Shown in pieces: positions 15,209 to 60,689 of a stretch of 64,000 nt of DNA. The notes below the pieces were generated by a model. It had not been told where the DNA came from and did no database searches. It was given only the letters and a program-made list of their open reading frames with translations. Position 1 is the stretch's first letter; every line of letters starts with the position of its first letter. The stretch is from positions 2,084-66,083 of the forward strand of contig CAMCXE010000001.1 in assembly GCA_945882995.1 (NCBI GenBank), read 5' to 3'. Position numbers and translations under genes: made by a program. The stretch is from Thalassocella blandensis (GTDB taxonomy: Bacteria; Pseudomonadota; Gammaproteobacteria; Pseudomonadales; Cellvibrionaceae).

Positions 15209-15222
15209 CGTGGCGCGATCCC

Positions 15223-21878: not shown

Positions 21879-21885
21879 TCTCGCC

Positions 21886-37371: not shown

Positions 37372-37402
37372 GGGTATTGAGTCGGCAAATGCGCGCCAGT
37401 CC

Positions 37403-37623
37403 TTGCTATGATAAAAGAGCAAATAAAGTGCAGCGGCTTTTTCCTCGCTGAACCTTAGTTCCACCCGTTCCATCTAGATCATTCAATAACGCAAACCTTC
37501 GGGTTTGATGATCGGTCGCAAGACTGCGTTAATTCTGAGTGTTATCGCTCACCCATCGGGGAATTCAAAATCCTGATGGGGTGATGAATTCCCCATTTTT
37601 TTATCAAAATTGAGGATCGTCAC
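37403..37623 (+). promoter_or_regulatory. Type A structured leader, copy 1 (extended -10, conserved hairpins, intrinsic terminator/attenuator)
   Basis: TGCTATGAT extended -10, CAGCG/CGCTG hairpin followed by GAACCTT, CAAACC-UUCG-GGUUUG hairpin, GUC-GCAA-GAC hairpin, and the terminator GGGGAATTC(19 nt)GAATTCCCC-A-T7 at 37558-37602. About 90 percent identical to 38133-38259. Confidence 0.7.
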
Positions 37624-38076: not shown

Positions 38077-38094
38077 TTGCAGAGTATTTAGATT

Positions 38095-38122
38095 AAGACC
38101 ATCCTCGGGTGGTCTTTTTTTT
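38095..38122 (+). terminator. Rho-independent terminator
   Basis: AAGACCA-TCCTCGGG-TGGTCTT followed by a T-run. Confidence 0.75.
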
Positions 38123-38132
38123 GCGCTAATTT

Positions 38133-38352
38133 TTGCTATGATGAAAGAGCAAAAAAGTGCAGCGGCTTTTTCCTCGCTGAACCTTTGTAGCATCCAGATC
38201 ATTCAATAACGCAAACCTTCGGGTTTGATGATCGGTCGCAAGACTGCGTTAACCTTACTCAATGAGCATTTCGCTCGCCACCCACTGGGGCAAACACTTG
38301 CCCATTGGGGGTTTGTGTTTCTCCGGTATTTTCTTACTTTTGGAGAAACACT
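38133..38352 (+). promoter_or_regulatory. Type A structured leader, copy 2 (ends in an SD-sequestering hairpin)
   Basis: Same 5' 127 nt as copy 1. The 3' part has the perfect 10-bp stem GTGTTTCTCC (38315-38324) / GGAGAAACAC (38342-38351), which covers the SD 2 nt before the ATG. Confidence 0.7.
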
Positions 38353-41197: not shown

Positions 41198-41348
41198 TTT
41201 AACCAACTTGCAATTCAATGGCGCTCCATAGGGGCGCTTTTTTTTGCCCCAAAATAACTCGGTCGAGGCAAATACAATTTGATGGCCTTCAAAAAATTCT
41301 GGCGCGGATAAGCTTGTATTACTGCCCGTTCATATTTTGGAGAAAGCC

Positions 41349-45437: not shown

Positions 45438-45442
45438 CAGCC

Positions 45443-45634
45443 ATGGGCGCACTAGAAACTATTACAGGTCAGCATTCAGTGCTCGCTTTGATCGCGGTGT
45501 TTCACTGGACGCTTGGCGCGGCCGCGCTGCTGATTTGTCCCCAGTGGGAGTGGCGAATGACAGGGGTGTCGTGTGTATTCGCGGGCACCATGGCGGCTGT
45601 ACTGCCGGTACTGGCCGCCATGGGTTATGCCTAG
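45443..45634 (+). CDS. Small membrane protein (tentative)
   Basis: 63 aa with two hydrophobic helices, starting 6 nt after the kinase stop. Confidence 0.35.
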   Translation: MGALETITGQHSVLALIAVFHWTLGAAALLICPQWEWRMTGVSCVFAGTMAAVLPVLAAMGYA

Positions 45635-45821
45635 CCGTGGTGGGCGGCGTTTGACGCTTGGCAAATTGGGTGCAGTCTCTCCTGCGGTCAAACCACTGGG
45701 CAGGTTTCGCTGGCGCCAGACACAGTAGTCGGCCTCCTTGGTGCTATTCCTATCCTAGGATATTCCGCTCGCACCTTCAGGCGGCTACGGCTGCAAACGC
45801 TGTGCGTTATTAGCTATTAGT

Positions 45822-45905
45822 TTGACAGTCACGAAAATTTTTGCCAACAATAGTGTGACAGTCACTAAAAATAAAAATTGCCGTTTTCGTGACGGTCACT
45901 ATAAT
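45822..45905 (+). promoter_or_regulatory. Promoter with three palindromic operator-like boxes GTGAC-N-GTCAC
   Basis: Boxes at 45822-45832 (TTGACAGTCAC), 45855-45865 (GTGACAGTCAC) and 45889-45899 (GTGACGGTCAC), spaced 33-34 bp apart. TATAAT at 45900-45905 abuts box 3. TTGCCG lies 16 nt upstream. Confidence 0.6.
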
Positions 45906-45941
45906 TAAGTTACCCGCCACTTCTCGCTATGGGTATATTTT

Positions 45942-46238
45942 ATGATTGACGCTAATGACAACTTCACGATGGACGCTTTCACTGAGGCGCCCCGCCGCAA
46001 AGGCCGCCCGCCCACTGGCAAAGCCATGACGCCATCCGCGCGTAAGGCGGCTCAGCGCAGGCGTGATTTTATGGCGCTGTGTACCGACTTGGGCGCTATT
46101 GATTTTCACGGGGCCTCTATAACCTCGTTGCTGGAATATTTGCCGAAAGCGATTGCTGCGGGCCGCGTCTTGGCGGTTGAGGCAATTGCCGCCGAGCTGA
46201 TTTTGCGGGCAACACACAATAGCGATAATCACGCGTAA
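45942..46238 (+). CDS. Small basic protein, possible DNA-binding regulator
   Basis: 98 aa. Basic N-terminus APRRKGRPPTGKAMTPSARKAAQRRR. Sits behind the three-box promoter. Confidence 0.45.
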   Translation: MIDANDNFTMDAFTEAPRRKGRPPTGKAMTPSARKAAQRRRDFMALCTDLGAIDFHGASITSLLEYLPKAIAAGRVLAVEAIAAELILRATHNSDNHA

Positions 46239-46267
46239 ATCAGCACCAACAATCGAGCGGGGTCTCT

Positions 46268-46528
46268 GTGATGGGAATTTTTGAGGTGGTTGGTTCGGGT
46301 ACCGGCATTGCCGGGGCCATACTCTTGGCGCTAAAAATCCGCTATTCGCCATGGGCCTGGCCACTTTGGGTGCTGTCTTGTTTTGCATGGATTTTGTTTG
46401 GCTTGTCCACTCAAGCCTATCCCTTGGTTGTGCAAAATGCTGTGTTTATCGGTATCAATATCATTGGCACATGGACTTGGCTGGTTAAGCCGTGGCTTCT
46501 GCGCCCCGCGCAGGAAAACAAAATATAA
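46268..46528 (+). CDS. Small 3-TM membrane protein (PnuC/SemiSWEET-like, tentative)
   Basis: 86 aa, Trp-rich TM helices (YSPWAWPLWVLSCFAWILFGL, FIGINIIGTWTW) reminiscent of PnuC-type repeats. Confidence 0.4.
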   Translation: MMGIFEVVGSGTGIAGAILLALKIRYSPWAWPLWVLSCFAWILFGLSTQAYPLVVQNAVFIGINIIGTWTWLVKPWLLRPAQENKI

Positions 46529-46557
46529 CCTCTGAATTATGTAGCAGCCGCACAAAG

Positions 46558-49500
46558 CTATTCGATGGGTAAATGACTCGGTACGGACACCTCCACACAA
46601 TTGCGCCCCGATTGTTTGGCCGTGTAAAGCGCCACATCCGCCAGCTTTAACATTTTATCAAAGGTGTCATCCGGCTTAATGCAGGCAGACACACCCATGC
46701 TAATGGTGACGCTCAACGGGTTGTCACCCTGCTCAAAGGTGTGTGCCGCTACAGCCACGCGGATTTTCTCGGCAAGGCGCACCGCGCTGTCCAGTGTGGT
46801 ACTGGGGCACATCAACACAAACTCCTCGCCGCCCCAGCGGGCCAAGTGGTCGCCCGACCGAATATTCTGCAAAACCACGTCTACCAAACCCTTAATCACC
46901 CTGTCTCCAGCATCATGGCCACGGTTGTCGTTAATGCGCTTGAAGTGGTCAATATCAAAAATCATTAAGCACACGCCCTTTTTCATTTCGTCGTTGATAA
47001 ACAGACCGGCAATGATTTGATTAAGACCGTGGCGGTTATAAATCCCGGTCATGGCGTCGGTAGCGGATAGGGTTTTGTATTTGTCGGTTTGGTTATGCAG
47101 GTGAACCCAGTAACGGCGCCCAATCTCAGCGGCCAGCAACAACAATCCGTAAAGCCCGTAAGCCCAGCTCGTGCGCCAAAAAGGCGGGGTAATTTCAATG
47201 GCAAGACTGGTTTCGCTGGTCATGCCGGGAGTTGCATGGTTGGCGGCGCGCACCCGGAAGCGGTACTGACCTGGAGCCAGGTTGGTATAGGTGGCGGAGC
47301 CTGCGGGTGTGCCCATGCGCCACTGGGTGTCGAAACCTTCCAGCCTGTAGCTGTAGTCATAGCTTGCTGAAGAGACAAAATTTAGGCCCACATAATCAAT
47401 GGAAAACATTGGGTCGCTCCAAGCTAGTTGAAGTTTTTCGGTATGACCTAAGTCTTGGCTCAAAAGTGATCCGGCACTGCCGGGGATTTGTGGTGTGCTG
47501 CCAAGGCGCAGCTCAGTAAGCACTACGCGGTGTAGGTTGGCGGGACTGTCCATCCCGGCACCCTTGGCGGTGACTTTGACCGGATCAAACTCGGTGACCC
47601 CTTCAGTACTGCCGATCCACAAGTGCTGCTGGCGATCTAGCAGCGCCGCGTTGCGCGTCACGCTAGACCCGGCTAGGCCGTGGCGTTTGCGGTAGGTTTG
47701 AACATGGCGACTAACGGGGTCAATATGGGCCAAGCCGTTGATGGTGCCTAGCCACACGCCGCCCTGAGCGTCTTCGATGATGGTGCTGATGGAATTAGAT
47801 GGCAGCCCATTATGGGTGGTGAGCCTACTGAACTGCTCTTTAGTGGGGTCTAGGATGCTCACCCCATCACTCTTGGTGCCCACCCAAATATTGCCCTTGG
47901 AATCCTCCATAAGCGCCAGTATGTGATCCGCTGCAAGGCTGTTAGGGTCGCTGGCACTATGGGTGTAATGGGTGAACCTGCGCGTGGCGATATTGAATTT
48001 ATCCAACCCCTTGAGCGTGCCCAGCCACAAGTTACCTCGGCTGTCCGGCAGCAAGGCTTTAACAAAATCATACGCCAGGGAATTGGGATTGGAGGGGTTG
48101 TGGCTGAAGTTTTCAAAACTGTCGGTGTCGGGACGGTACAGACCAAAGCCCCCTCGCTCCAAATAACACACCCAAAGGTTGCCGGTTTTATCGCGGGCAA
48201 TTTGTGAAATGTAGGGGCTGGCCACCGCGCCGGGGTTATTGGCGTCTGGGTAGTAATTCTTGAAAGTCGCCGTCTGGCGATTAAACCGATGCAGGCCACC
48301 CGACCAAGTGCCCACCCAAAGATTACCACTGGTGTCTTCGCCCAAACTGGTCACCGCATTAAAGCGTAGGCTGTTCGGGTTTTTGGGGTTGGCGGTGTAG
48401 CGAGTGCTAGCGCCAGTCACAGGGCTGATGGAGACTAATCCCGTTTCGCTGCCCACCCAAATAAGGCCTTGGGAATCCTGAAACACACTGGTGATTTGAT
48501 CGAGTGGCTGAGTATTGTCTATGGCGCCTGCGATCTTGTGCGGAATAAAGGTGGCCTTGTGTTCATCGTACAGGTTGACGCCATCCGGGAAGGTGCCAAC
48601 CCATACGTTGCCATCACGGTCTTCAAAAATATCCCGCACTTGATTTGACCGCAAAGAGCCGGGATCAAGGGCATCATGTCGCACGCGGGTAAATTCATCG
48701 GTGCTAGCATCGTAAACCGCAAGCCCGCCATGGTCGGTGGCCACCCACAGGGTTTGGTGGTATTCCCGAATATCCCGTATGGCATCGCTCCCCAGTGACC
48801 GCTCATTATCGGGGTTAGACCGGTAAATTCTGAAGGTTCGCCGGTCGGCGTTCATGCGGCTCAGCCCGCCCGAATAGGAGCCCACCCAGATTTGCCCAAG
48901 GTGGTCTTCATAGATACGCTCAATATCACCCTCTTGGAGCGATGCGGGATCATTGGCGTCGTGGCGCCACCGCTCAAATTTACCGGTCAGCGGGTCAAAT
49001 ACATTCAAGCCTTTGCTTGTAGTTCCAATCCAGACTTTTTGGTGAGAGTCGATAAACAGCGAGCGCGCATTATCGCCGCTCAAGCTGTTCGGGTTGGCGG
49101 CATCGGCCATGTGCTTGCGAAAGCCGGTGCGGTCGGCACTCAGCACATTGAGGCCTGCGGAGGTGCCGATATACAGTTGGTTCTGGGCGTCTACCGCTAG
49201 GGCCATGATCAGGCTACTGCTTAAATCCTTAGCGCCGGAACCTTCCTGGTACCGGGTAAAATCGTCGGTTTGCGCGTTGTAGCGGTTTAAGCCATTAAAA
49301 GTGCCCAGCCAAAGCACACCGGATTTATCCACGGCAAGTGCGGCTATGTAGTTGGACGATAGGGAGCGAGGGTTGAATGGGTCGTAAAAATAGAATTTGA
49401 AGTGCTGCGAATCGTAGCGCGCCAAGCCGTATTCACCGGCAAACCACATAAACCCGTGGCGGTCTTGAATGATGTCTTTAATGGCGCCGATGGATTGTTG

Positions 49501-49617
49501 TTCAGCGCCATCCGCTGTTAACAGGCGCTGAAAACGTAAATTCAGCTGCGCGTTCGGTGCGGCCGCTACAACAGCTCCGCTCCACAATACAATTAGTACC
49601 ACCACCCAACGAAACAC
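46558..49617 (-). CDS. Sensor diguanylate cyclase: propeller repeats plus Y_Y_Y domain, TM, GGDEF domain
   Basis: Same repeat architecture as the kinase. YSYRLEGFDTQW...YRFRV, a TM segment, then a GGDEF domain with RWGGEEF and DIDHFKRINDNRGHDAGD. Confidence 0.85.
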   Translation of the reverse strand: MFRWVVVLIVLWSGAVVAAAPNAQLNLRFQRLLTADGAEQQSIGAIKDIIQDRHGFMWFAGEYGLARYDSQHFKFYFYDPFNPRSLSSNYIAALAVDKSGVLWLGTFNGLNRYNAQTDDFTRYQEGSGAKDLSSSLIMALAVDAQNQLYIGTSAGLNVLSADRTGFRKHMADAANPNSLSGDNARSLFIDSHQKVWIGTTSKGLNVFDPLTGKFERWRHDANDPASLQEGDIERIYEDHLGQIWVGSYSGGLSRMNADRRTFRIYRSNPDNERSLGSDAIRDIREYHQTLWVATDHGGLAVYDASTDEFTRVRHDALDPGSLRSNQVRDIFEDRDGNVWVGTFPDGVNLYDEHKATFIPHKIAGAIDNTQPLDQITSVFQDSQGLIWVGSETGLVSISPVTGASTRYTANPKNPNSLRFNAVTSLGEDTSGNLWVGTWSGGLHRFNRQTATFKNYYPDANNPGAVASPYISQIARDKTGNLWVCYLERGGFGLYRPDTDSFENFSHNPSNPNSLAYDFVKALLPDSRGNLWLGTLKGLDKFNIATRRFTHYTHSASDPNSLAADHILALMEDSKGNIWVGTKSDGVSILDPTKEQFSRLTTHNGLPSNSISTIIEDAQGGVWLGTINGLAHIDPVSRHVQTYRKRHGLAGSSVTRNAALLDRQQHLWIGSTEGVTEFDPVKVTAKGAGMDSPANLHRVVLTELRLGSTPQIPGSAGSLLSQDLGHTEKLQLAWSDPMFSIDYVGLNFVSSASYDYSYRLEGFDTQWRMGTPAGSATYTNLAPGQYRFRVRAANHATPGMTSETSLAIEITPPFWRTSWAYGLYGLLLLAAEIGRRYWVHLHNQTDKYKTLSATDAMTGIYNRHGLNQIIAGLFINDEMKKGVCLMIFDIDHFKRINDNRGHDAGDRVIKGLVDVVLQNIRSGDHLARWGGEEFVLMCPSTTLDSAVRLAEKIRVAVAAHTFEQGDNPLSVTISMGVSACIKPDDTFDKMLKLADVALYTAKQSGRNCVEVSVPSHLPIE

Positions 49618-49756
49618 GCATTACCCCGCTTAAACCAATAGTTGGCATTTCTTTTAGTTAAGCAGGTGGCATGGCGAGTGCTGGCTAACCGATCCAATCA
49701 AATTGTATTGGGTTTGCGCGAATATAGATTGCGGTGATCTAAGCGCCAGAATCGAA

Positions 49757-49945
49757 TTGCGCAACAGTCCATTCAGTGCAATGATTAAAGCGCAAAACGT
49801 CTCAACGAACGTACCGTTGACCCTTAAGAGCTGCGCACTGAATCTGTAATCGCAGTATGGCTTTACGGCCTGATTCTATTTTTTAAAACCCGCGCGGGAG
49901 AAATCCCGACCGGGGTGCTCTCGCATTTTTTTTGGAGAGTACCCT
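49757..49945 (+). promoter_or_regulatory. Type B promoter plus structured leader, copy 1 (upstream of radC)
   Basis: TTGCGC, 17 nt, TGcAATGAT. Hairpin TCAACG(7 nt)CGTTGA followed by CCCTT. CGGGA-GAAA-UCCCG hairpin. SD-sequestering stem 49914-49922 / 49935-49943. Confidence 0.7.
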
Positions 49946-50401
49946 ATGCAATACGCACTGAAATCTGACGATGAAGTGATTCAAACCGCCCTCAGTATTA
50001 TGGAGGCGCGGGCACACAAAGGTGGCGCCGGATTATCCAGCCCTAAATTGGCCAGCAATTTATTTATGTTGCGCTTAGGTAATTTAGAGCATGAGGTTTT
50101 TTGTGTGGCGTTCCTGGATAACCAAAACCGCTTAATCGCGGCAGAGGATATGTTCAGGGGCACCATTGACGGCGCCAGTGTCTACCCTCGGGAAGTGGTT
50201 AAACGCGCCCTGCAGCTTAATGCGGCGGCGGTGATGTTTGCCCACAATCACCCCAGCGGACTGACAACGCCTAGTACTGCGGATAAGCAAATAACCAAGC
50301 GATTAAATGAGGCGCTCGCGCTGATTGATATTCGGGTGCTGGATCACTTTGTGGTGTCAGCAGTGGAATACACCTCCTTTGCTGAGCAGGGGTGGTTATG
50401 A
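49946..50401 (+). CDS. radC: RadC-like JAB/MPN domain protein
   Basis: [27 protein letters not shown]-like motif and overall RadC length (151 aa). Confidence 0.85.
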
Positions 50402-50592
50402 GCTTGATTAACGCCGTGCCGCAACAACAAATACTCTGGCGCTACAGCCTTGTTACGGGGAATTGGCACCCGGTTAGAATCTGCGATCCTAAAAATGCCG
50501 CCGCATGGCTGCAAATATTTCAGGATGATGAGCCAGGTGTTGATTTCAGACTCGAAAAAACGCGGCCCGGGAGAAAACCCCTAGGTCGGTGA
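50398..50592 (+). CDS. Small hypothetical protein translationally coupled to radC
   Basis: Its ATG overlaps the radC stop (ATGA). 64 aa. Confidence 0.4.
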
Positions 50593-50631
50593 TTTGCGAT
50601 TTTAGAATTTTACCTATGGTGAAAGCACGAA

Positions 50632-50792
50632 AATAAAAAGCTCCCTCAAAATGCTGAAACGGGAGCGCCCAATCTTCGGATTGGGTGGCATTAAACCTAA
50701 CAGGCGAAAGCCTTCACTCAACCCACTGGGGCAATTTTCCCAGTGGGGAAAGTTGTGTCTCCAGTGGGTTAATTTAATTTGGAGATACAACC
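50632..50792 (+). promoter_or_regulatory. Type C structured leader / intercistronic element, copy 1
   Basis: Nearly identical to 51904-52064. Hairpins GCUCCC...GGGAGC, CCCAAUC-UUCG-GAUUGGG, AGGC-GAAA-GCCU and CCCACUGGGG / CCCAGUGGGG / CCAGUGGG (alternative pairings), plus the SD stem 50755-50762 / 50781-50788. Confidence 0.7.
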
Positions 50793-51905
50793 ATGAATGT
50801 TACTACCAACTTCAACAAAATTACTGGATGTCACGTCTACAACGCGAAGCTTTATTTTTCAGCCATAGTGGCTTTTGAGCATTCCGCTTTGTTTAGGGTT
50901 GATGGCTCTATCGGGACACCAGAAACGGTGTCTGCAATGGTGGATTTTCTCCATGCTCTCGACACTGCACTAGGAGTCACCAATTCTGGATTTGTCGCAG
51001 TGTATGTGGTTCGGGGTATAGAGGCTTCCACCGACGTTTTTTACAGCCTGGAAAAGCAGAGACCCCGGGAAATCGGTGCTGGATTTGTAAGCCAGCTAGA
51101 GGATAGTGATCTTACTTGCGGAGTGTTTGTTAGCCCTGCAAGCGAATCCATTGGGTCTACTGATTACGATGAGCTTGTAATCTTCAACCCTGCCGGTCCT
51201 GTAACCATCAAACTCACCGATCAGGCGAGTGTGGTGGCCAAACTTGCAGAGCTGAGTGATTACGTCATTTTATCGACCACAGGCATGGCAAAAGATTTTG
51301 ACCGTGATGATGTGTTTGACGTGGTTGGGTATTTTGCGGCGAAAACTGGGCAACCGGTTGCAGTCGAAAGGCCCGCTGTTGTTGCTGAGGCTCCCTCACC
51401 AAAGGATATTGTCATCGAGTCAATAATCCCTAATGGAGAGCGTGTTTTTGCAATGGCGGTTTTTCCCAACGGTTATGCTCATGAGTCAGAGTTTGCCAGT
51501 GAGAGCGAGGCTCGCGGTTATGTGGCAACACTGAACACCATGGGTCAAGCGTCCAGAACTTGTGCCAATGATGCAGTTTCGGCGATGGATACAGCCAAGG
51601 TTGCGGTAAATCAGGCTCAGCCTAGGTTTATCCCGTGCTCCAATTCCGAGGTCGTAATTGATTGCGGAGGGCAGTGGTCTTTGGAGGTGTTGAAGTCTGT
51701 TTGTGCCAATGGTGCAATTTCCGAGGAGGATGCAGCCAAGCTCGCGGCAAAGTGTGCGCAAGCGGCAAAGCTGTTAACCGAGGTGGCTCAGGCAGTGACT
51801 TATGAAAATCTCAGTGAAATTTTAGGGTGGACTTCATCCTGGGTGATCGAGATGATCGAAGGTTTAACGGCCAGTGAGTTTACGAAGTTTCAGGCAGTGA
51901 AATAA
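50793..51905 (+). CDS. Hypothetical protein
   Basis: 370 aa with a GGAG SD 8 nt upstream. No recognisable motif. Confidence 0.55.
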   Translation: MNVTTNFNKITGCHVYNAKLYFSAIVAFEHSALFRVDGSIGTPETVSAMVDFLHALDTALGVTNSGFVAVYVVRGIEASTDVFYSLEKQRPREIGAGFVSQLEDSDLTCGVFVSPASESIGSTDYDELVIFNPAGPVTIKLTDQASVVAKLAELSDYVILSTTGMAKDFDRDDVFDVVGYFAAKTGQPVAVERPAVVAEAPSPKDIVIESIIPNGERVFAMAVFPNGYAHESEFASESEARGYVATLNTMGQASRTCANDAVSAMDTAKVAVNQAQPRFIPCSNSEVVIDCGGQWSLEVLKSVCANGAISEEDAAKLAAKCAQAAKLLTEVAQAVTYENLSEILGWTSSWVIEMIEGLTASEFTKFQAVK

Positions 51906-52064
51906 TAAAAAGCTCCCTCTAAATGCTGAAACGGGAGCGCCCAATCTTCGGATTGGGCGGCATTAAACCTAACAGGCGAAAGCCTTGACTCAACCCACTG
52001 GGGCAATTTTCCCAGTGGGGAAAGTTGTGTCTCCAGTGGGTTATTTTATTTTGGAGATATGACT
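51904..52064 (+). promoter_or_regulatory. Type C structured leader / intercistronic element, copy 2
   Basis: Starts at the stop codon of the upstream gene. Only a few mismatches relative to copy 1. Confidence 0.7.
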
Positions 52065-52550
52065 ATGGGTGTAGGTGTTTATTGGCAAGAAAATGCGTTT
52101 ACCGTGTTTGTTGATGATGAGGAGTTGTATGCTGAATACAGCATCGAAAAACAGCAGCACGAAAACATTGAGCATGACGACGACTACCAATCGTTGCACG
52201 AGGATTTTGTGCAAGAAGTCTTGGAGCTGTTGCCGGAATCGTATGAGGTATTAACCGATACTTGGGAGGGTGGTTACAGCTTCGGAGATGTATCGCGTCA
52301 AATACTGGCTGAAAACGGCTTCTATCGCGTTTCACTGGTAGATTGGCATGGTATGCAGGCGATCAATGTAGAGTTGCGTCAAGCACACTACAGCGATTCT
52401 TGGGAGTTTAATCCTTTGGCTGTGCATCATCATGGCCGAGCGGCCACGAAGATTTTTGATGCGTTAGCTGAGCGGTTTGCGTTGCGCGGCAGGACAAGTG
52501 GCTGGACTACCGGCTGTTATGTGAAATCAACCGAAAAACTTGCCGCCTAG
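52065..52550 (+). CDS. Hypothetical acidic protein
   Basis: Start placed at the second ATG (52065) to keep the 8-nt SD spacing seen in copy 1. The track start is 52059. Confidence 0.5.
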   Translation: MGVGVYWQENAFTVFVDDEELYAEYSIEKQQHENIEHDDDYQSLHEDFVQEVLELLPESYEVLTDTWEGGYSFGDVSRQILAENGFYRVSLVDWHGMQAINVELRQAHYSDSWEFNPLAVHHHGRAATKIFDALAERFALRGRTSGWTTGCYVKSTEKLAA

Positions 52551-52652
52551 CGGTACCTGAAGTGTTTTAGCGCAAGCTAAAGCACTTTTTTTGTGCCTGC
52601 CGTTTGGTGGCGGACCCATTGGCCACCAGCAGAGGCCACGCTCAATCAGCCC

Positions 52653-52895
52653 TTGAAAATTTCGTATTTCGGTGCAATCATTAAGGCGTATAACGTCTCA
52701 GCGAACGCACCGCTGAACCTTTGTTACAACGTCTTGGCGAACGTACCGCCGAACCTTTATAGCTGCGCACCAGGTTTGCAATCGCAGCAAGACGCAAGTC
52801 TGACCTGACACTACACCACCCATCGGGGAGTCTAATCCTCCCCTCCGGGACGGTGATGCTCCCCAGTTTAATTCCTAAACTTCGGAGCAGGCACC
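52653..52895 (+). promoter_or_regulatory. Type B promoter plus structured leader, copy 3 (hairpin module duplicated)
   Basis: TTGAAA, 17 nt, TGcAATCAT. Two tandem hairpin modules, TCAGCG(7)CGCTGA-ACCTTT and TTGGCG(7)CGCCGA-ACCTTT. SD stem 52857-52862 / 52884-52889. Confidence 0.7.
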
Positions 52896-53102
52896 ATGCA
52901 AGCATCTTTCAAAGCAACTGAATTTCACACTGTTGAAGCCACATTCGGCGGTCTTGTCAGCACTAAGCTGACAGACTCTCGGGTACCTGGCGAGACGTTT
53001 GAAAAACAACTCTCGTTGGAGTCTTACAATAACCTTGTGAGATTCATTCAAGAGAACGATCATCGCTATGCCATTACTATGGCAAAGCGTATGTTTCACT
53101 AG
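52896..53102 (+). CDS. Small hypothetical protein, paralog 1
   Basis: 68 aa. C-terminal SLESYNNLVRFIQENDHRYAITMAKRMF parallels the neighbouring gene. Confidence 0.45.
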   Translation: MQASFKATEFHTVEATFGGLVSTKLTDSRVPGETFEKQLSLESYNNLVRFIQENDHRYAITMAKRMFH

Positions 53103-53129
53103 AGCGTTACCCCTAGTTGGCTTCAAGCG

Positions 53130-53184
53130 ATTAGGGAGCCTCCTAAAAACACTTATTTCAGGTGGTTTTAGGAGGTTCCCTAAT
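53130..53184 (+). other. Long near-perfect 19-bp stem hairpin between the two small paralogs
   Basis: ATTAGGGAGCCTCCTAAAA (53130-53148) pairs with TTTTAGGAGGTTCCCTAAT (53166-53184), 18 of 19 positions, with a 17-nt loop. Confidence 0.8.
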
Positions 53185-53206
53185 CATCAACACTTGGAGT
53201 TACATC

Positions 53207-53419
53207 ATGGCTACACAATCTTTTGCAGCAAACGGTCGTCACATTGTTAAAGTTGTTTTGAATGTTGGCACGGGTTTATGTGATGTTTTGGTGAGTGATT
53301 CAGTCACCAGCAAAACCTTCACAAAATCCATGGTGCTATCGCAGTACAATCGTTTGGTAGATTGGCTGAAAGAAAATGATCACAGTTTTGCAATGAACTC
53401 CATTCATTCTTACTTTTGA
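53207..53419 (+). CDS. Small hypothetical protein, paralog 2
   Basis: 70 aa from ATG 53207 (GGAG 7 nt upstream). VLSQYNRLVDWLKENDHSFAMNSIHSYF matches paralog 1. Confidence 0.45.
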   Translation: MATQSFAANGRHIVKVVLNVGTGLCDVLVSDSVTSKTFTKSMVLSQYNRLVDWLKENDHSFAMNSIHSYF

Positions 53420-53449
53420 TCACGAGGTTTATATGCCAAACGCCTGAAA

Positions 53450-53478
53450 GGCCCGCAAGTAAATTGCGGGCCTTTTTT
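53450..53478 (+). terminator. Rho-independent terminator between convergent genes
   Basis: GGCCCGCAA-GTAAA-TTGCGGGCC followed by TTTTTT. Confidence 0.8.
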
Positions 53479-53508
53479 GTTGCTCGAAGGTCCAGCAAGC
53501 AAATTGCA

Positions 53509-54264
53509 TCAAGCGCCGGATTGGCTGGCGGTGTTTTGATTGAGCTGCTCCCATGCCGCCACATCCGCCTCGGTGGCCGAGCCAGAGGCCAGTGCGCGTT
53601 CACGCAAATACTCCTTAATTTGCTCAAGATTCCAGTCCGCAGGCAATCCGTGAGTGCGCAGGTAATCATCCCTCACCTCTTGCCGCGTTAAAAACGCTTC
53701 GCGCTCCATAGCCGTGGAGTAAGAAAACCCGGAAGGGTCGCCAAAAAATATTTCATAGCGACTAATAACGCCTTGGCGTGTGCCGGGGTATTTCGCATGA
53801 AAGGCGTTTACTGCCGATTCAATATGGTCAATGTCATTGGTGTCGGTGACAAAGCCCCATTCAATATAATCATTCAATACCTGGCGGCGGTAGCGAGCGG
53901 AGTTGTAAAACAGTACGCGCAGGCGACGCTCTTTGGTGTCTAGGCGGGATTCATCGCCAAAAAACCACTCGCTAATGGTGAGCGGCTTTTTGGTGGTTTC
54001 ACTGTTTTGCGTGGCCAATTCGTCCAGTTTATCGAATAGGGCTTGGCCGGTTAATCCTATAAACGGGGTTTGATCAAAAGGCTTGGTTTCCAGCCGGGAT
54101 TTTTCGCTGGTTTGGTAGGCTTCAAATTCGGGAATGTCGTCACGCATGGCCATACCCTTGTAGATCATAAAAAAACTGGCCGCTGCGCCTTCATCAAAAC
54201 CGCGCTCCTGCATTAGGGTGCGACTCACAATGACGTGTTCGTTATGGGATAAGGGTCTGTACAC
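53509..54264 (-). CDS. Hypothetical protein, third gene of the vapBC operon
   Basis: 251 aa. GTG start with a GGAGG SD. Only 15 nt downstream of the vapC stop. No recognisable motif. Confidence 0.55.
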   Translation of the reverse strand: MYRPLSHNEHVIVSRTLMQERGFDEGAAASFFMIYKGMAMRDDIPEFEAYQTSEKSRLETKPFDQTPFIGLTGQALFDKLDELATQNSETTKKPLTISEWFFGDESRLDTKERRLRVLFYNSARYRRQVLNDYIEWGFVTDTNDIDHIESAVNAFHAKYPGTRQGVISRYEIFFGDPSGFSYSTAMEREAFLTRQEVRDDYLRTHGLPADWNLEQIKEYLRERALASGSATEADVAAWEQLNQNTASQSGA

Positions 54265-54279
54265 ACTGGCCTCCGGGAT

Positions 54280-54696
54280 TTACAGCCAAGGATTAAGAAG
54301 TTTTACACCCGTCAATTCAAAATCGAGTGTATTGCGAGTCACTACTGTCATGCTATGAATAATTCCCGTTGCGGCAATAAACGCATCCCGCTCGGAGCGA
54401 GGGTCGGGAATGTGCAGCCCAGCGCAGCACTGCGCCACGGCCACGTCTATGGGTAAAATGCGCCCTGCAAAGGCGGGTATCACTTGCTCGTCGAGCCAGC
54501 GTCGTAGCATATCGCTTTGCACCGGGTCTTTCTGTGCGACGCGACGAATACCCAGTTCAAGTTCCATGATGGTTATCACTGATAAATGCAGTGAATCCGT
54601 GGCCACCGCCTGCGCCCAAGTCACCACACCCTTATGGGCGCGCCCTGCCCGCCCTTTGCGCAGCTCGGACACCACATGGGTATCGAGTAAATACAT
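54280..54696 (-). CDS. vapC: Type II toxin VapC (PIN domain ribonuclease)
   Basis: MYLLDTHVVSELRK...ITIMELELG...AFIAATGIIHSMTVVTRNTLDF, a typical PIN/VapC-FitB pattern with conserved acidic residues. Confidence 0.85.
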   Translation of the reverse strand: MYLLDTHVVSELRKGRAGRAHKGVVTWAQAVATDSLHLSVITIMELELGIRRVAQKDPVQSDMLRRWLDEQVIPAFAGRILPIDVAVAQCCAGLHIPDPRSERDAFIAATGIIHSMTVVTRNTLDFELTGVKLLNPWL

Positions 54697-54962
54697 CAGG
54701 ATAAATCCGGTATTTGCGCCGCAACGGCAATTTTTTGAGGCTCGAATTCAATTGTGTCATCAGCGGGCATGGACAGTAATTCGGTAATGTTTGGCTGCTT
54801 ACCCGTCATGCGACGAAATTCATCGAAGGTCATGAGCACATAGGAAGGCTTGCCGCGATCGGTGATAAATACCGGCCCCTGCAAGGCGGCCCGCTTGGCG
54901 CCGCCGGTGTCTTGATTGAATTCGCGGCTGGAAACGGATGTTGTCGGCATGGTAAACCCCAA
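54696..54962 (-). CDS. Type II antitoxin (Phd/YefM-type) partner of VapC
   Basis: SSREFNQDTGGAKRAALQGPVFITDRGKPSYVLMTFDEF is a typical Phd/YefM N-terminus. Its stop overlaps the vapC start. The likely true start is Met 54950. Confidence 0.75.
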   Translation of the reverse strand: MGFTMPTTSVSSREFNQDTGGAKRAALQGPVFITDRGKPSYVLMTFDEFRRMTGKQPNITELLSMPADDTIEFEPQKIAVAAQIPDLS

Positions 54963-55053
54963 TTAAGTAGCAATGTATAAACAATAGCGCTTAGCTGGCT
55001 TGGCTGCAAGTTTATTTATTTTGCGAATTTGTGAGTGGCACAAAAAACTACGG

Positions 55054-55246
55054 TTGCGATTTCGGGGTTTGGGTGCAATGATTAAAGGGCAAAACGTCTC
55101 AGCGAACGTACCGCTGAACCTTAGAGTTGCGCATCGAATCTGCAATCGCAGCATGGCTTAATCGCCTGATTCTATTTTTTTCTAACCCGCGTGGGAGTCA
55201 TCCCGCATGGGGTGCTCTTCGCATTTTATTTTTGGAGAGCATCACC
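55054..55246 (+). promoter_or_regulatory. Type B promoter plus structured leader, copy 2
   Basis: TTGCGA, 17 nt, TGcAATGAT. Hairpin TCAGCG(7)CGCTGA-ACCTTAG. SD stem 55211-55218 / 55236-55243. Alignable to copy 1 all the way to the ATG. Confidence 0.7.
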
Positions 55247-55792
55247 ATGATTTCAGTACCCGGCACCATCAAAATCCGCAGTGTAGAAGGCCGTTTTGGC
55301 TCCTTCAATGTGGCCACACTCGATTGCTCCATCGGTTCGTTTACGGTCAAAGACGCCTCTATTGAGGAGTTTGACCAGGGCGTTTATACCGGTGATTTTG
55401 TGATTGAAAAAATTAAACCACAAAGTTACATCTCAAACGGCCGCATGGTGGTTGAGGTTCGAGCCATACTCAGCGCCATTATGCTGAGTCGGGATTCGGT
55501 ACATCAGCCCTGTGATGAATTTGAGTCGCTAGAGCAAGACCCGATGGAAGCCGAAGCGGGTGTTGATGAAGGCCCAGAGCCTGAATTGACCCCGGCACCG
55601 GATGAGGTGGAGGTTGAAGTGGTTGATGATGAGCTGGACGAAGCTGCCCGTTTATTCGGAATACTTTGGCCGCTCGGTAACGTCATTAAACTCGACCCAA
55701 CCATTAACCGTGCGTTGTTCCGTCAGCAAAAAGATTACCTGAAAAATGCAGGTTTTCGCTTTGTTGCCGCCGATCAACACTGGTTACGGTAA
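55247..55792 (+). CDS. Hypothetical ICE protein (DUF3275-like, tentative) with acidic linker
   Basis: Start at ATG 55247 (MISVPGTIKIRSVEGRFGSFNVATL...). OB-like N-terminal region and an acidic stretch EAEAGVDEGPEPELTPAPDEVEVEVVDDELDE. Confidence 0.45.
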   Translation: MISVPGTIKIRSVEGRFGSFNVATLDCSIGSFTVKDASIEEFDQGVYTGDFVIEKIKPQSYISNGRMVVEVRAILSAIMLSRDSVHQPCDEFESLEQDPMEAEAGVDEGPEPELTPAPDEVEVEVVDDELDEAARLFGILWPLGNVIKLDPTINRALFRQQKDYLKNAGFRFVAADQHWLR

Positions 55793-55804
55793 GGGGGTTG
55801 TGTC

Positions 55805-56926
55805 ATGGCACTTATCTTTCAACGCTTAGCGCGTAACTTTATCAAAAATGGCTACTTCCCCACGGATGAAGCCACCATTTCTCGCGTATTGGCCATGCTT
55901 GAAGCCCCGGTAGGACAGGTCAGAATTTGTGACCCCTGTTGTGGCGAAGGTATTGCCTTGGCGGAATGTGCGCATTACTTGAAAGATGCCGGTTCCTCGG
56001 TGTTTAGTGCAGGCATTGAATTTAATGCCGAGCGCGCCAGCAATGCTAAGCAGTTACTCGATCATGTTGTGCATTCCGATATTCAGGACTGTGTAATGAG
56101 TAACGGCCAGTTCAACTTACTGTGGTTAAACCCGCCGTATGGTGATCGCATTACCGACCAAACGCTAAGCACTAACGCCTCGGAAAAACAGGGGCGCGAC
56201 CGCTTGGAGAAGTATTTTTTATCCCGCGCAATGCCCACTTTAGCGTTTGGTGGCTTGCTCATTTTTATCATTCCGCACTATGTGCTGGATCGACACCTCG
56301 CCAAACAGCTTGCTCGTAGTCTGAGTGAATTGTCGGTGTATCGCTTGCCTGAAGATCAATTCAAGCAGGTGGTAATTATGGGGTATCGACGCCGAGGGGA
56401 AGTTGCCGCCGGTGATGCTGAGATCGTGAATCGCCTCGTGAATATTTCGGGTGATCGTGACTTGGCTCCAGAACTGCCCGAAGTCCCTGAGCGGTTTTAT
56501 CAGGTTTCCACGGTAACGCCCGATGTACAAAGGCGCTGCTTGGAATTTCGCTCAGTAAGGCCTACGGCGGAACAGGCTTGGGAAGTTTCACAGCTACACC
56601 CCTGCTTGTGGGATGAATTTTCATTGCACTTTGGTCGGAGTGACGCGGTAAAACGCCCACCCGCTCGGGCGCTTTCGGATTGGCACTTATCCCTCATGTT
56701 GGCTGCTGGCCAAGTATCGGGTGTAGTGACTTCCAAAAGTGGTCGGCAATTGTTAGTAAAAGGCAGTACCCATAAGGAAAAGGAGCTAACCACGACCTTT
56801 AGCGAGGACGCGGATGGCAATCTGGAAGAAACCAGAATCCTGACCGATAGGTTTGTGCCTGTGATTAAAGCCATTGATGTAACGCCTGGCGCTGCAACCT
56901 TTGGTGATGTTTTGACGATACGTTAA
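55805..56926 (+). CDS. N6-adenine DNA methyltransferase-like protein (DUF6094-type)
   Basis: SAM-binding motif I ICDPCCGEGIAL and catalytic motif IV LWLNPPYG (NPPY). Confidence 0.7.
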   Translation: MALIFQRLARNFIKNGYFPTDEATISRVLAMLEAPVGQVRICDPCCGEGIALAECAHYLKDAGSSVFSAGIEFNAERASNAKQLLDHVVHSDIQDCVMSNGQFNLLWLNPPYGDRITDQTLSTNASEKQGRDRLEKYFLSRAMPTLAFGGLLIFIIPHYVLDRHLAKQLARSLSELSVYRLPEDQFKQVVIMGYRRRGEVAAGDAEIVNRLVNISGDRDLAPELPEVPERFYQVSTVTPDVQRRCLEFRSVRPTAEQAWEVSQLHPCLWDEFSLHFGRSDAVKRPPARALSDWHLSLMLAAGQVSGVVTSKSGRQLLVKGSTHKEKELTTTFSEDADGNLEETRILTDRFVPVIKAIDVTPGAATFGDVLTIR

Positions 56927-56945: not shown

Positions 56946-56979
56946 CCCGATTGGGCCTTCCAATCGGGAGGCCTTTTTT
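56946..56979 (+). terminator. Probable Rho-independent terminator
   Basis: CCCGATTGG-GCCTT-CCAATCGGG, then AGGCC and TTTTTT. An alternative stem is GGCCT/AGGCC directly before the T-run. Confidence 0.6.
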
Positions 56980-57008
56980 ATTTTTTCTTTAATTTAAAAG
57001 GTGAGCAT

Positions 57009-57731
57009 ATGTTGGATGATTTTTACAGTATCAAAGAGGCGTCAATGCCAATGTTTGTGGATTCGTATTTGGTGGACGAAGGCCGGTTGTTGTTTTGTTC
57101 TTTGTGGGGTGGTGAGACGGCGATGCAGGAGTTTTTAGCGCGCTTAACACTGCCGGAAGCCGAATTCGGATTGCGAGAATTTACCCTCCTAGACCCCGAT
57201 GACGGAAGGATGTACGACGAAATTTCGGTGGGTAATGCTGCCGAACTTTCCAAGCTCACCGCCAGAACACCCTCCACAACGGTGCTCGGGTCGCTCTGCC
57301 ATGTTTGGCTGTACGACCCGGTATTGCAAAAACACAGCGCGGCTCGCCGCGAGCGGTATTTGTTAATGCGCCAGGGGTTTACATCTGATCCAGATGGTGT
57401 CCTCAGTGATATTTGGTCAGCCATTAAGGAGCTTTGTCACATACCCTTGATGGATGTGTGGGAAAGACCCATTACGGCTTACATGACTACACAAACGTGG
57501 CTGTACGACATAGAAGGTGTAGGTGGTGTTGATGGTTTAAAAATCACCATACCGGAACAGGAGTTTACGGAGGCAGTGCAGGCGATGTTGCGCGACGGGA
57601 CATTAAGTCTTGACCCGGCACCGCCAACACCTAATCCATTAACACCGGATGATCCTGAAGTTGTACAACCTGAAAAACAGCGCGGCCCGGTTATGCAGTC
57701 TGAGCTGTTTGGCACGGTTTCACTGTTTTGA
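57009..57731 (+). CDS. Hypothetical protein between the methylase and the helicase
   Basis: 240 aa from ATG 57009 (GGTGAG upstream). No recognisable motif. Confidence 0.5.
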   Translation: MLDDFYSIKEASMPMFVDSYLVDEGRLLFCSLWGGETAMQEFLARLTLPEAEFGLREFTLLDPDDGRMYDEISVGNAAELSKLTARTPSTTVLGSLCHVWLYDPVLQKHSAARRERYLLMRQGFTSDPDGVLSDIWSAIKELCHIPLMDVWERPITAYMTTQTWLYDIEGVGGVDGLKITIPEQEFTEAVQAMLRDGTLSLDPAPPTPNPLTPDDPEVVQPEKQRGPVMQSELFGTVSLF

Positions 57732-57910
57732 GGAGAGTAAAAATCGTGACTTTCACGAACCCGTAAGCGAAGTCAGGGCGCAAGCCTGGGGTTCATTGTA
57801 ATTTGTAAACACTCACTGTTTTCATTTGAAAACAACACCTTGACCCTGCGGGCACAAACTCCCGTAGGGGCTTGTGTTGGCGGGGTTTTCTTATTTTTGA
57901 GGAAACCTTT

Positions 57911-60281: not shown

Positions 60282-60302
60282 AACCCTCTTCGGAGGGTTT
60301 TT
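60282..60302 (+). terminator. Rho-independent terminator (UUCG loop) after the helicase
   Basis: AACCCTC-TTCG-GAGGGTT followed by TTTTT. Confidence 0.8.
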
Positions 60303-60391
60303 GTTTATGCTCCCCGCGCTATCCACTTCGCCGTAAAGGTGCTTGTAGTGATAGTGAGGGCAACTACCTGATTTTAATGCTATATTATCTC

Positions 60392-60598
60392 GTAAGTTGT
60401 AGTTTCCCGCCGCTAAGGCGGTTTAAAGTATGAAATTCAGCGACTTTATGTTGATTTCGCGTTTCCCGCCGCTAAGGCGGTTTAAAGGATCAAATAGAAA
60501 CCAAGCCCGTTTAGCAAACCGTTTCCCGCCGCTAAGGCGGTTTAAAGACGCATAGCATTACCGTCATCCTGAATGCCATTGCTTCCCGCCGCTAAGGC
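60392..60598 (+). CRISPR. Orphan CRISPR mini-array, type I-F-like 28-nt repeat geometry: 3 intact repeats, 1 degenerate terminal repeat, 3 spacers
   Basis: GTTTCCCGCCGCTAAGGCGGTTTAAAG is identical at 60392, 60451 and 60511 (periods 59 and 60). Unique 31-33 nt spacers. Degenerate repeat GCTTCCCGCCGCTAAGGCTT... at 60571. AT-rich leader with TGcTATATT at 60368-60376. No cas genes in the window. Confidence 0.7.
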
Positions 60599-60606
60599 TT
60601 TTGTAG

Positions 60607-60630
60607 GTTTAGAGGCGTTTACCCGCCGAT
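60607..60630 (+). repeat. Spacer-less repeat-like hairpin (solitary CRISPR-repeat-like unit)
   Basis: GTTTACCCGCCGATTAGGCGGATC keeps the CCGCC/GGCGG stem and the 5-nt loop size of the array repeat, but lies only 9 nt after the degenerate repeat. Confidence 0.5.
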
Positions 60631-60637: not shown

Positions 60638-60660
60638 ATCGTTCGTTAAACCCTCTTTGG
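60638..60660 (+). terminator. Rho-independent terminator, near-duplicate of 60282-60302
   Basis: AAACCCTC-TTTG-GAGGGTTT followed by a T-run. Confidence 0.8.
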
Positions 60661-60689
60661 AGGGTTTTTTAATATCTGGCGGTTAAATT

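Follow-up and report, generated by a model that had tools for sequence, protein, structure and literature searches.

A family of pseudoknotted leaders with a putative terminator/anti-Shine-Dalgarno platform in an integrative conjugative element-like region of Thalassocella blandensis

The DNA analysed here is a stretch of 64,000 nucleotides (nt) from the gammaproteobacterium Thalassocella blandensis (contig CAMCXE010000001.1), hereafter the window, in which positions are counted from the first letter. The element in the window is an integrative conjugative element (ICE) or a close relative of one, since its gene order is shared with related loci and since it also encodes a TraI_2 relaxase (21820-24252), ParA, DUF2857, an AcaB-type regulator and a single-strand-binding protein (SSB). 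The gene order common to the window and to the related loci with enough flanking sequence is (SSB, topoisomerase, CsrA, TraT)-antirestriction-DUF3577-small open reading frames (ORFs)-RadC-DUF3275-DUF6094 methylase-SNF2 helicase, the slot of the topoisomerase being occupied in the window by an ORF of 655 amino acids (aa; 33920-35887). We identified eight copies of one leader family in the window (A1, A2, B1, C1, C2, B2, B3 and D; Table 1), all of which have the full set of helices on inspection, except that the first helix, P1, is missing in C1 and C2. The initial annotation had spoken of at least five or six copies. Type B leaders precede radC (PF04002; B1), the 68-aa ORF (B2) and the DUF3275 gene (B3), and the covariance-model search of the window found no copy in positions 1-36000, which hold the transfer genes, or in the cargo.

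The three type B copies (49757-49945, 52653-52895 and 55054-55246), from which the family was originally recognized, are real and share a TTG-N17-TGCAAT(G/C)AT block and a 6-bp hairpin. The TTG of the block (at 49757 in B1, 52653 in B2 and 55054 in B3) is followed, after a spacer of 17 nt in each case, by TGCAATGAT in B1 (49777-49785) and B3 (55074-55082) and by TGCAATCAT in B2 (52673-52681). The P1 hairpins begin 16 nt after this promoter-like block; each has a 6-bp stem that closes a loop of 7 nt, with (A/C)CCTT behind it. Judged by shuffles, 0.01 occurrences of the 21-nt hairpin module would be expected in the window, which has four. Two assignments had to be exchanged: the duplicated hairpin module, attributed to copy 3, lies in copy 2 (52698-52716 and 52734-52752), and the copies that can be aligned down to the ATG are 1 and 3 and not 1 and 2, the alignable part including a CGGGA-GAAA-TCCCG hairpin (49889-49915 and 55186-55212). 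The type A leaders do have TGCTATGAT and CAGCG-loop-CGCTGAACCTT in common with type B, as had been noticed. The substitutions in the P1 stem had also been presented as direct covariation evidence, which is weak for the window alone (two fully compensatory changes and one G.U-compatible change) and holds across 32 homologous leaders, where double changes affect every one of the five P1 pairs and pairing is kept in 96.6% of the cells; P1 is, on this evidence, a selected nucleic-acid structure. It is, however, merely the first helix of a larger leader, whose helices P2 and P3, pseudoknot, helix P4 and terminator-like alternative had been overlooked, as had the membership of the third leader type (C1, C2) and of the copy upstream of the SNF2 gene (D) in the same family.

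The comparative set consisted of contigs of DUF3275 relatives (35 at E <= 1e-10), 16 metagenome loci and 3 genome loci, oriented by the DUF3275 gene. A covariance model (R1) of helices P1, P2 and P3 was made from seven leaders upstream of DUF3275 homologues, and a second one (R2) from 32 R1 matches at E <= 1e-3; the E-values of these models are rough. The DNA searched amounted to 317 kb from 27 sources (the window and the related loci) and was ICE-linked, with very little host chromosome. In it R2 found 46 plus-strand copies, present in 17 of the 27 sources, and on the window, with filters off, it placed B2, B1 and B3 at 47-55 bits and gave a partial match at 57748-57786, within D. All 46 independent copies lie on the gene strand, and each of 10 weak minus-strand matches overlaps the palindromic 5' end of a plus-strand match. 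The 3' ends of the copies are typically 60-115 nt upstream of the (inferred) start codons, and the genes behind them are those for Antirestrict, DUF3577, RadC, DUF3275, SNF2 and ORFs of 66-70 aa. Seven copies are found in the related locus L004 alone, and the position of D before the SNF2 gene is also filled in L004 (12270) and L011 (14018). The suggestion of a regulon-like signal is thus borne out in so far as the copies mark co-oriented, gene-proximal ICE genes (antirestriction, DUF3577, RadC, DUF3275-methylase and SNF2). Upstream of DUF3275 homologues the layout of the leader is kept and the helix sequences are different. Two Vibrio loci (37% protein identity) have no such leader, and the family does not look phage-borne, because a DUF3275 profile found no relative among the IMG/VR viral contigs.

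Every helix covaries, the pseudoknot included. In the alignment of the 32 leaders, 95% of the cells are standard pairs and 19 of 19 pairs changed on both sides, a count that overstates the independent events, since paralogy, or origin from almost identical elements, links many of the copies. None of 500 shuffles reached the observed pairing values, and sliding the partner columns lowers pairing to 26-42%. The paired fraction is 97.8% in P2 and 100% in P3. In the pseudoknot, where five or six bases of the P2 loop pair with bases 1-2 nt 3' of P3, it is 87.3%, against the same 26-42% after sliding. The P1-P3 alignments were fitted by the model, which, like the non-independence of the copies, counts against the weight of these values; the support for the pseudoknot is not an artefact of such fitting, because the pseudoknot is absent from the model. 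Its strands read AAGCAC/GTGCTT, TGAACAC/GTGTTCA and ATAGAG/CTCTAT in relatives, and those of B2 are unlike those of B1 and B3 yet still complementary. In the model's alignment, the 46 copies carry 30 different stems of P2, 12 of P3 and 24 variants of the P1 stem. The P3 loop is of the GNRA type in 35 of the 46 copies, P1 is followed by a conserved CUUAA-type tract, and about six scattered positions are conserved at >=90%.

The remaining window copies are built from the same parts. A1 has P1 (37431-37450), P2 (GATCAT/ATGATC) with an inserted UUCG hairpin, P3 with a GCAA loop, the pseudoknot AACGCA/TGCGTT, P4 and a Shine-Dalgarno (SD) sequence; its pseudoknot strands recur in A2. C1 has P2 (GCTCCC/GGGAGC), P3 with a UUCG loop, the pseudoknot AATGC/GCATT, whose strands recur in C2, P4, and the segment 3/SD part described below; C1 and C2 begin directly behind the preceding stop codon or at most about 45 nt from it. 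D is composed of P2 (TGACTT/AAGTCA), P3 (GGC-GCAA-GCC), the pseudoknot GAACCC/GGGTTC and P4 (57844-57870).

Table 1. Leaders of the family in the window, their parts in the type B copies, and the adjacent csrA-like gene (seg, segment of the expression platform)
Feature	Coordinates	Strand	Basis
CsrA-family gene, 68 aa	36652..36858	+	tblastn; NCBIfam PRK01712, 71 bits against a cut-off of 73
A1 leader, before Antirestrict (PF03230) gene	37404..37623	+	covariance model E = 0.015, repeat comparison, folding
A2 leader, before DUF3577 / STY4534-family gene; built like A1	38134..38352	+	covariance model E = 3e-4, folding
B1 putative promoter: TTGCGC, 17-nt spacer with TGc, AATGAT	49757..49785	+	sequence; same spacing in B2, B3; below generic promoter-scan cut-off
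B1 P1: TCAACG / AACGTAC / CGTTGA	49802..49820	+	sequence, fold; compensatory changes in all 5 P1 pairs over 32 leaders
B1 P2: GCTGCG/CGCAGT, 15-nt loop holding pseudoknot 5' strand GAATC (49840-49844)	49830..49856	+	covariation alignment
B1 P3: GGC-TTTACG-GCC, then pseudoknot 3' strand GATTC (49872-49876)	49859..49876	+	covariation alignment
B1 P4: seg1 CCCGCGCGGGAG paired with seg2 TCCCGACCGGGG	49889..49915	+	folding, P4 comparison
B1 seg3 GTGCTCTC, T8 run (49926-49933), SD GGAGAG (49934-49939), radC start codon	49915..49948	+	folding, duplex energies
C1 leader, before 370-aa ORF	50640..50792	+	covariance model E = 1e-3, folding
C2 leader, before 163-aa ORF; 94% identical to C1	51912..52058	+	covariance model E = 0.019, repeat comparison
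B2 putative promoter: TTGAAA, 17 nt, AATCAT, TG ahead of second hexamer	52653..52681	+	promoter scan 9/12; upstream terminator 52559-52588
B2 duplicated P1: TCAGCG-AACGCAC-CGCTGA (52698-52716), TTGGCG-AACGTAC-CGCCGA (52734-52752)	52698..52752	+	sequence, repeat search
B2 P2 GCTGCG/CGCAGC, P3 AGAC-GCAA-GTCT, pseudoknot CAGGT (52771-52775)/ACCTG (52803-52807)	52762..52807	+	covariance model, inspection
B2 3' module: P4, seg3 GGTGATGCTCC (52852-52862), SD GGAGC, ATG of 68-aa ORF	52819..52898	+	folding, duplex energies
B3 putative promoter: TTGCGA, 17 nt, AATGAT, TGc ahead of second hexamer	55054..55082	+	sequence
B3 P1: TCAGCG / AACGTAC / CGCTGA	55099..55117	+	sequence, repeat search
B3 P2 GTTGCG/CGCAGC (one G.U), P3 GGC-TTAATC-GCC, pseudoknot GAATC (55136-55140)/GATTC (55168-55172)	55126..55172	+	covariance model, inspection
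B3 3' module: P4, seg3 GGTGCTCTTC (55211-55220), T-rich tract, SD GGAGAG, ATG of DUF3275 gene	55186..55249	+	folding; Pfam for gene
D leader, before SNF2-type helicase (probable ATG 57911)	57747..57910	+	covariance model, inspection, folding

The 3' part of the leaders is an expression platform of four segments. In every leader P4 has the form CCC-nnn-GGGA / loop / TCCC-n'n'n'-GGG, realized in 43 distinct sequences with complementary variable centres, and it is followed, in this order, by a pyrimidine-rich segment 3, a T-rich run and the SD sequence. Segment 1 (CCC..GGGA) can pair with segment 2, which gives P4, or with segment 3, and segment 3 can alternatively pair with segment 4, the SD region; in B1, for instance, the partner of segment 3 is the SD or, alternatively, GCGGGAG of P4. 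The folding tool leaves pseudoknots out, and all energies are predictions. The minimum free energy (MFE) fold of the full-length leader is P4 plus the segment 3:SD helix, and the SD region is paired with an upstream strand in the MFE of 36 of 42 full-length leaders. The claim that each copy ends in an SD-sequestering stem built from its own sequence agrees with the duplex energies, which are -13.2 kcal/mol for segment 3 against its own SD flank and -10.1 kcal/mol against non-cognate ones (p = 1.6e-4; 31 clusters). The competing pairing is likewise specific, with -13.8 kcal/mol for segment 1, the 5' arm of P4, against its own segment 3 and -9.1 kcal/mol against non-cognate ones (p = 2e-4).

When the RNA is taken to end just past the T run, segment 3 is paired upstream in the MFE of 33 of 42 distinct leaders, and in 34 of 42 leaders there are >=5 T in the 9 nt that follow segment 3. 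In the ten leaders examined (e.g., A1, A2, C1, D and that of L008), the 5' arm of P4 and segment 3 form a long hairpin that ends at the T run; the nascent C1 RNA folds as a 22-bp hairpin of -39.4 kcal/mol, and a scan placed a terminator-like site at 49911-49923 in B1. In prediction there is therefore both what defines an attenuator, a G+C-rich hairpin directly before a U run with a competing alternative fold, and what defines SD sequestration, an upstream strand that is complementary to the SD and its flanks and co-varies with them. Taken together, the predicted folds and cognate-specific duplexes indicate that the platform has two selected, mutually exclusive states, a terminator-like one with the SD free and another with P4 formed and the SD closed. 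The pseudoknot domain has no strand in common with this platform, from which it is separated by linkers of variable length, some of them holding extra hairpins, and inspection by eye revealed no consistent alternative pairing of the pseudoknot 3' strand or of the linker with the platform. As for a leader peptide, the sole candidate in B1, an ORF of nine codons, is not conserved in B3 and was rejected.

Parts of the leader were also observed on their own. In the related loci L025, L026, L027, L033 and L017, DUF3275 directly follows radC and is preceded by a P4 hairpin and an anti-SD/SD stem alone, and leader modules can for this reason occur separately; in L017, L027 and L033 a full leader stands before radC, and in L025 and L026 the covariance model detected no copy. 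In the window, a P4-like hairpin (CCCGATTGG..CCAATCGGG) at 56946-57010, overlapping a GGCC..GGCC alternative and a T run, lies between the end of the DUF6094 methylase gene and the likely start of a 264-aa ORF; it may lack the pseudoknot domain and could be a platform-only copy. A near-perfect hairpin of 20 bp, with one G.U pair, is found at 53129-53185, directly 5' of the SD of a 70-aa ORF (53207-53419) that follows the similar-sized 68-aa ORF.

The structure lies in the sense strand and is tied to translation. This follows from the excess of G.U over A.C pairs in the helices (14 vs 5), from the GNRA loops of P3, from the reach of the structure down to the SD, and from the comparison of the two strands of B1, the sense RNA having a z-score of -3.5 and the template strand, folded as DNA (-33.7 kcal/mol), one of -1.36, with the TGCAATGAT/TTGCGC block largely unpaired. 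This block can be read as a promoter, with a -35 hexamer, a 17-bp spacer ending in TGn and the -10 hexamer AAT(G/C)AT. C2 has a promoter-like match within the end of the upstream ORF. A scan located terminators ahead of leaders A2 and B2, and separate transcription units fit with these. In 13 related leaders (e.g., L015 9777-9838) an extra inverted repeat of about 13 bp, P0, lies between the upstream terminator and P1. P0 is paired to 90%, with compensatory changes at six pairs and G.U on the plus strand, and overlaps the block aligned to the -10 of the window copies; weak equivalents exist in the window in B1 (49751-49786) and A2 (38131-38156), and B2 and B3 are without one.

We consider it reasonably probable that the repeats are the 5' parts of cis-acting structured mRNA leaders that attenuate transcription and gate translation of a regulon of ICE establishment genes, and these genes are probably kept off until some factor acts on the leader RNA. 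Transcription would start from the TTG-N17-TGCAATSAT block, and the leader would comprise a promoter-proximal module, formed by P1 and the CUUAA-type tract, a compact domain of P2, the pseudoknot and the small P3, whose loop is mostly GNRA, and the four-segment expression platform, 60-115 nt before the start codon. P1, at or near the 5' end, may stabilise the transcript. Left unaided, the RNA would meet one of two outcomes, either being cut short at the T run or being completed with a closed ribosome-binding site, so that the antirestriction, DUF3577, RadC, DUF3275-methylase, SNF2 and small genes would be held off jointly until the factor acts. The pseudoknot domain may be the docking site for an activating factor or for RNA polymerase; it would act at a distance, and more likely recruits a protein or RNA polymerase than refolds the platform, because the linkers are variable, some with extra hairpins, and there is no common strand.

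Two proteins seem to be candidates for the opening factor. One is the CsrA homologue encoded by the adjacent csrA-like gene, which abuts the preceding ORF translationally and sits just 5' of the first leader. The other is a single-strand-binding protein, by analogy with phage T4 gene 32, in whose autoregulatory leader a 5' pseudoknot nucleates binding of the single-strand-binding protein. The two systems agree in that DNA-handling genes have, tens of nt ahead of their start codon, a pseudoknot with a U-rich tract behind it; however, the region from the pseudoknot to the start codon is highly structured in the present leaders and unstructured in T4. Such a scheme might couple expression to the amount of single-stranded DNA.

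Several points weigh against the proposed attenuation and gating. Both predicted ground states are 'off', and the opening of the gate is left without explanation by the modelled platform. In B1, B3 and their relatives, three leaders of the window, the nascent RNA favours P4 and not the terminator-like fold. Composition-matched shuffles pair the SD with no lower probability (about 0.8 in both), a comparison superseded by that of cognate and non-cognate duplex energies. The TTG-N17-TGCAATSAT block is a putative promoter by consensus match, and in a generic promoter scan B2 alone among the B copies is sigma-70-like (9/12 with TG), B1 and B3 falling just under the cut-off. P0 suggests that the transcript start may be further upstream, or that there is a structure at the DNA level. 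Hairpins of the d(GCGAAAGC) type are very stable in DNA too, and GNRA loops alone therefore do not exclude a sense-strand DNA structure.

A more elaborate form of the proposal, which we put forward tentatively and regard as unlikely, is that the leaders are an RNA-level AND gate for the ICE establishment and anti-defence genes as a whole regulon. In this view P1, a boxA-like tract and the pseudoknot domain would be a cis signal similar to nut or put, by which RNA polymerase would be made to ignore the segment 1:3 terminator; as the segment 1:3 hairpin would also tie up the anti-SD strand, transcripts both full-length and translatable would come from the modified polymerase alone.

Among the alternatives, a passive leader, which would do no more than stabilise the mRNA by its 5' hairpin, insulate the cassettes and set a fixed low rate of translation, with no signal and no trans factor, is unlikely. 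It would agree with the few conserved nucleotides outside the helices, with the 'off'-like nature of both predicted states, with a coupling of sensor and platform that is not visible, and with the separation of the cassettes by terminators. Nevertheless, two mutually exclusive pairings of the same strands, each with cognate-specific complementarity, and a pseudoknot conserved across the 46 copies are more than stability or insulation needs.

The same low probability is given to a processive antitermination of the nut or rrn type, in which P1 and the CUUAA tract (boxB/boxA-like), together with the pseudoknot domain, would load host Nus factors or an ICE protein onto RNA polymerase, so that the segment 1:3 terminator would be passed and its hairpin would free the SD. 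The leaders resemble lambda nut and the rrn boxB-boxA-boxC arrangement in that a hairpin close to the promoter precedes a (C/U)CUU(U)AA tract, with terminators further downstream, and this order is not the only likeness: after P1, relatives have GATCTTAAAAA, which is identical at 10 of 11 positions to GCTCTTAAAAA of lambda nutL (boxA plus spacer), the linker scores on average 6.6/10 against the boxA consensus (5.0/10 in shuffles), most leaders have a downstream terminator-like hairpin, and the variable linkers suit an action at a distance. However, the gammaproteobacterial boxA consensus GYTCTTTAANA (PMC5725501) is matched in the P1-P2 linker at best at 8/10 positions (20% of the leaders), with 5-7/10 in the window copies and none at 9, and C-type copies have no P1. 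None of the annotated plus-strand genes looked N-, Q- or NusG-like, and the pseudoknot domain is without counterpart in the lambda and rrn systems.

Translational control by the CsrA homologue of the ICE, or by CsrA/Rsm of the host, which would bind GGA of P4 (GGGA) and of the SD and repress or remodel the leader, is quite unlikely. A CsrA-family gene does lie directly 5' of the leader block in the window and occupies the same position in four related loci (L004, L015, L018 and L020), GGA is present in P4 and in the SD of most leaders, and there are documented cases of CsrA paralogues on ICEs and plasmids (PMC7366521, PMC9928087). The GGA motifs, however, are within stems and not in hairpin loops, where those of CsrA/Rsm-regulated leaders typically sit, A2, C1 and C2 have GGGG-C instead of GGA in P4, L008 and L011 are without a CsrA gene in the retrieved 10 kb upstream, and the binding of CsrA would leave the pseudoknot domain unexplained.

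It is highly doubtful that the leaders are small-molecule riboswitches, with P2, P3 and the pseudoknot as aptamer and the four-segment module as expression platform. The layout fits, as a pseudoknotted 5' domain precedes a terminator/anti-SD platform, and, as in attenuators and riboswitch platforms in general, there are mutually exclusive helices with common strands, one ending at a U run and the alternative sequestering the SD. The conserved positions, however, are as few and scattered as described above, the aptamer-like domain has no strand in common with the platform, variable linkers with extra hairpins lie between the two, and the regulated genes have no metabolic theme. The leaders also differ from attenuators and riboswitches in that both unaided outcomes are 'off' and that a leader peptide, a ligand pocket and a sensor strand overlapping the platform were not found.

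We hold it equally doubtful that a repressor or master activator of the ICE binds the P1 palindrome as a DNA operator placed shortly after the promoter, as one suggestion of the initial annotation had it. P1 is an inverted repeat of 6 bp with a 7-nt spacer next to the promoter-like block, its loop AACGTAC and flank AACGTC in the window subfamily are also kept in L017, L027 and L033, and it is missing where copies have no obvious promoter of their own (C1, D), C2 having the match in the upstream ORF end mentioned above. Such a binding site is nevertheless at odds with the variety of stems and loops within one ICE, since L004 alone has TTGGCG/CGCCAA, CAGCA/TGCTG, CACCAA/TTGGTG and GCTCAAC/GTTGAGC, and the window has three stems; moreover, G.U pairs are present, all five P1 pairs covary, and the loops vary from about 3 to 10 nt.

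The likeness to single-strand promoters (Frpo) or priming sites (ssi), also proposed at the outset, has fared worse, and a signal in the single-stranded DNA of the transferred strand is very improbable. The overlap of P0 with the -10-like block in relatives and the stability of the GCGAAAGC-type mini-hairpins as DNA would suit it, and the leaders are, like Frpo/ssi, multi-copy and in one orientation before anti-defence, ssb and methylase genes of a conjugative element, a gene set resembling the leading regions of plasmids, where Frpo is common (PMC11541004). In Frpo, however, it is the transferred (template) strand that folds as DNA into a hairpin and so restores a duplex -35/-10 (PMC11541004), and both hexamers need to be in a long stem of that strand, whereas here the block is outside any long stem and the template-strand fold is no better than shuffles. 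The helices of the leaders are placed on the sense strand by the G.U asymmetry, lie downstream of the promoter-like block and are linked to start codons through the pairing of the SD. Furthermore, B3 and its gene (55040-55800) gave no blastn match (word size 11) among 72,556 PLSDB plasmid records, a collection assumed to include F-like and I-type plasmids.

A generic intergenic repeat similar to repetitive extragenic palindromes or miniature inverted-repeat transposable elements (REP/MITE), or a recombination linker between cassettes, is barely credible in spite of the multi-copy, intergenic occurrence at cassette boundaries and the identity of repeated blocks (94% in C1/C2, up to 98% in A1/A2), given that the lack of orientation bias that the initial annotation had named as its mark is not seen in the ICE-linked DNA, where every independent copy follows the orientation of the genes and keeps a fixed distance to a start codon, that neither the cargo nor the 36 kb of the window with the transfer genes contains a copy (the searched DNA including very little host chromosome), and that structure is kept while sequence diverges.

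The family is absent from Rfam release 15. At the gathering threshold nothing was found in the whole window, and two tRNAs alone were found in eight related loci; at E <= 10, only chance-level matches appeared over 49000-56000, 37350-38360 and L004 4000-12500 (seven leaders), neither the radC motif nor STAXI being among them. In the literature we found nothing relevant on RNA motifs of DUF3577 or DUF3275 or on ICE leader pseudoknots. The radC motif is found in the 5' untranslated regions of radC, antirestriction, methyltransferase and integrase genes of mobile elements. To our knowledge, neither a terminator/anti-SD platform nor a multi-copy regulon layout has been part of it, and we know of no function assigned since their description to the radC or STAXI motifs. 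The radC motif (RF01754) was described as a candidate cis-regulatory structured RNA of Proteobacteria, and STAXI (RF01728) as a motif with a pseudoknot and stable tetraloops that occurs close to genes for Ssb, topoisomerase, antirestriction and integrase, with the question raised whether it acts as RNA or as single-stranded DNA, the functions of both being undetermined at that time (PMC2864571). The window leaders share with the radC motif the gene neighbourhood and the presumed role, but its model does not match them, and by this measure they are a different RNA. With STAXI they have in common the pseudoknot, stable tetraloops, similar gene neighbours and the same question of RNA or single-stranded DNA; however, STAXI strings two or three copies of a single pseudoknot in tandem and has no tie to start codons, whereas each window leader has one pseudoknot and an SD-gating platform. 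By model, the family is a member of neither. We regard the leaders as a probable structured cis-regulatory RNA for DNA-handling genes of mobile elements; what sets them apart is their regulon-like repetition, together with the pseudoknot domain and the dual terminator/anti-SD platform.

Other features were observed in and around the element. The cargo between A2 and B1 (41337-49617) consists of two large Reg_prop/Y_Y_Y sensor proteins in opposite orientations, one with histidine-kinase domains and the other with GGDEF. Between B2 and B3, on the opposite strand, there are a 251-aa ORF to which no family was assigned (53509-54264) and a pair of PIN-domain toxin and Phd/YefM antitoxin (54280-54962, minus strand). 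The TraI_2 relaxase gene contains coding tandem repeats with a 36-nt period (23187-23800). At 60402-60615 lies a mini-array resembling clustered regularly interspaced short palindromic repeats (CRISPR), formed by four repeats of GTTTCCCGCCGCTAAGGCGGTTTAAAG with a period of 59-60 nt, the last one degenerate, with a terminator on either side (60283-60305 and 60650-60672), the two being almost identical; a cas gene is absent from the 3 kb around it, and no Rfam CRISPR repeat family matched it. In L008, two tRNA genes (15169-15320) are found within the ICE-like region, 3' of the SNF2 gene.

Conjugative elements need anti-restriction, single-strand-DNA and methylase functions that are timed right and silent otherwise. 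The timing devices known from plasmids are single-strand promoters and transcriptional repressors. In the ICE family studied here, the same folded RNA appears to stand before each such gene, and these genes would thus be under joint post-transcriptional control, through termination and ribosome access. If the AND gate proposed above were true, it would represent a new class of antitermination RNA and a new timing device for a conjugative element after its entry. The eight copies in one element and the 46 natural variants constitute a mutable handle on the timing of establishment genes, and with them a well-supported pseudoknotted RNA joins the small group, that of radC and STAXI, which recurs beside the DNA-handling genes of mobile elements.

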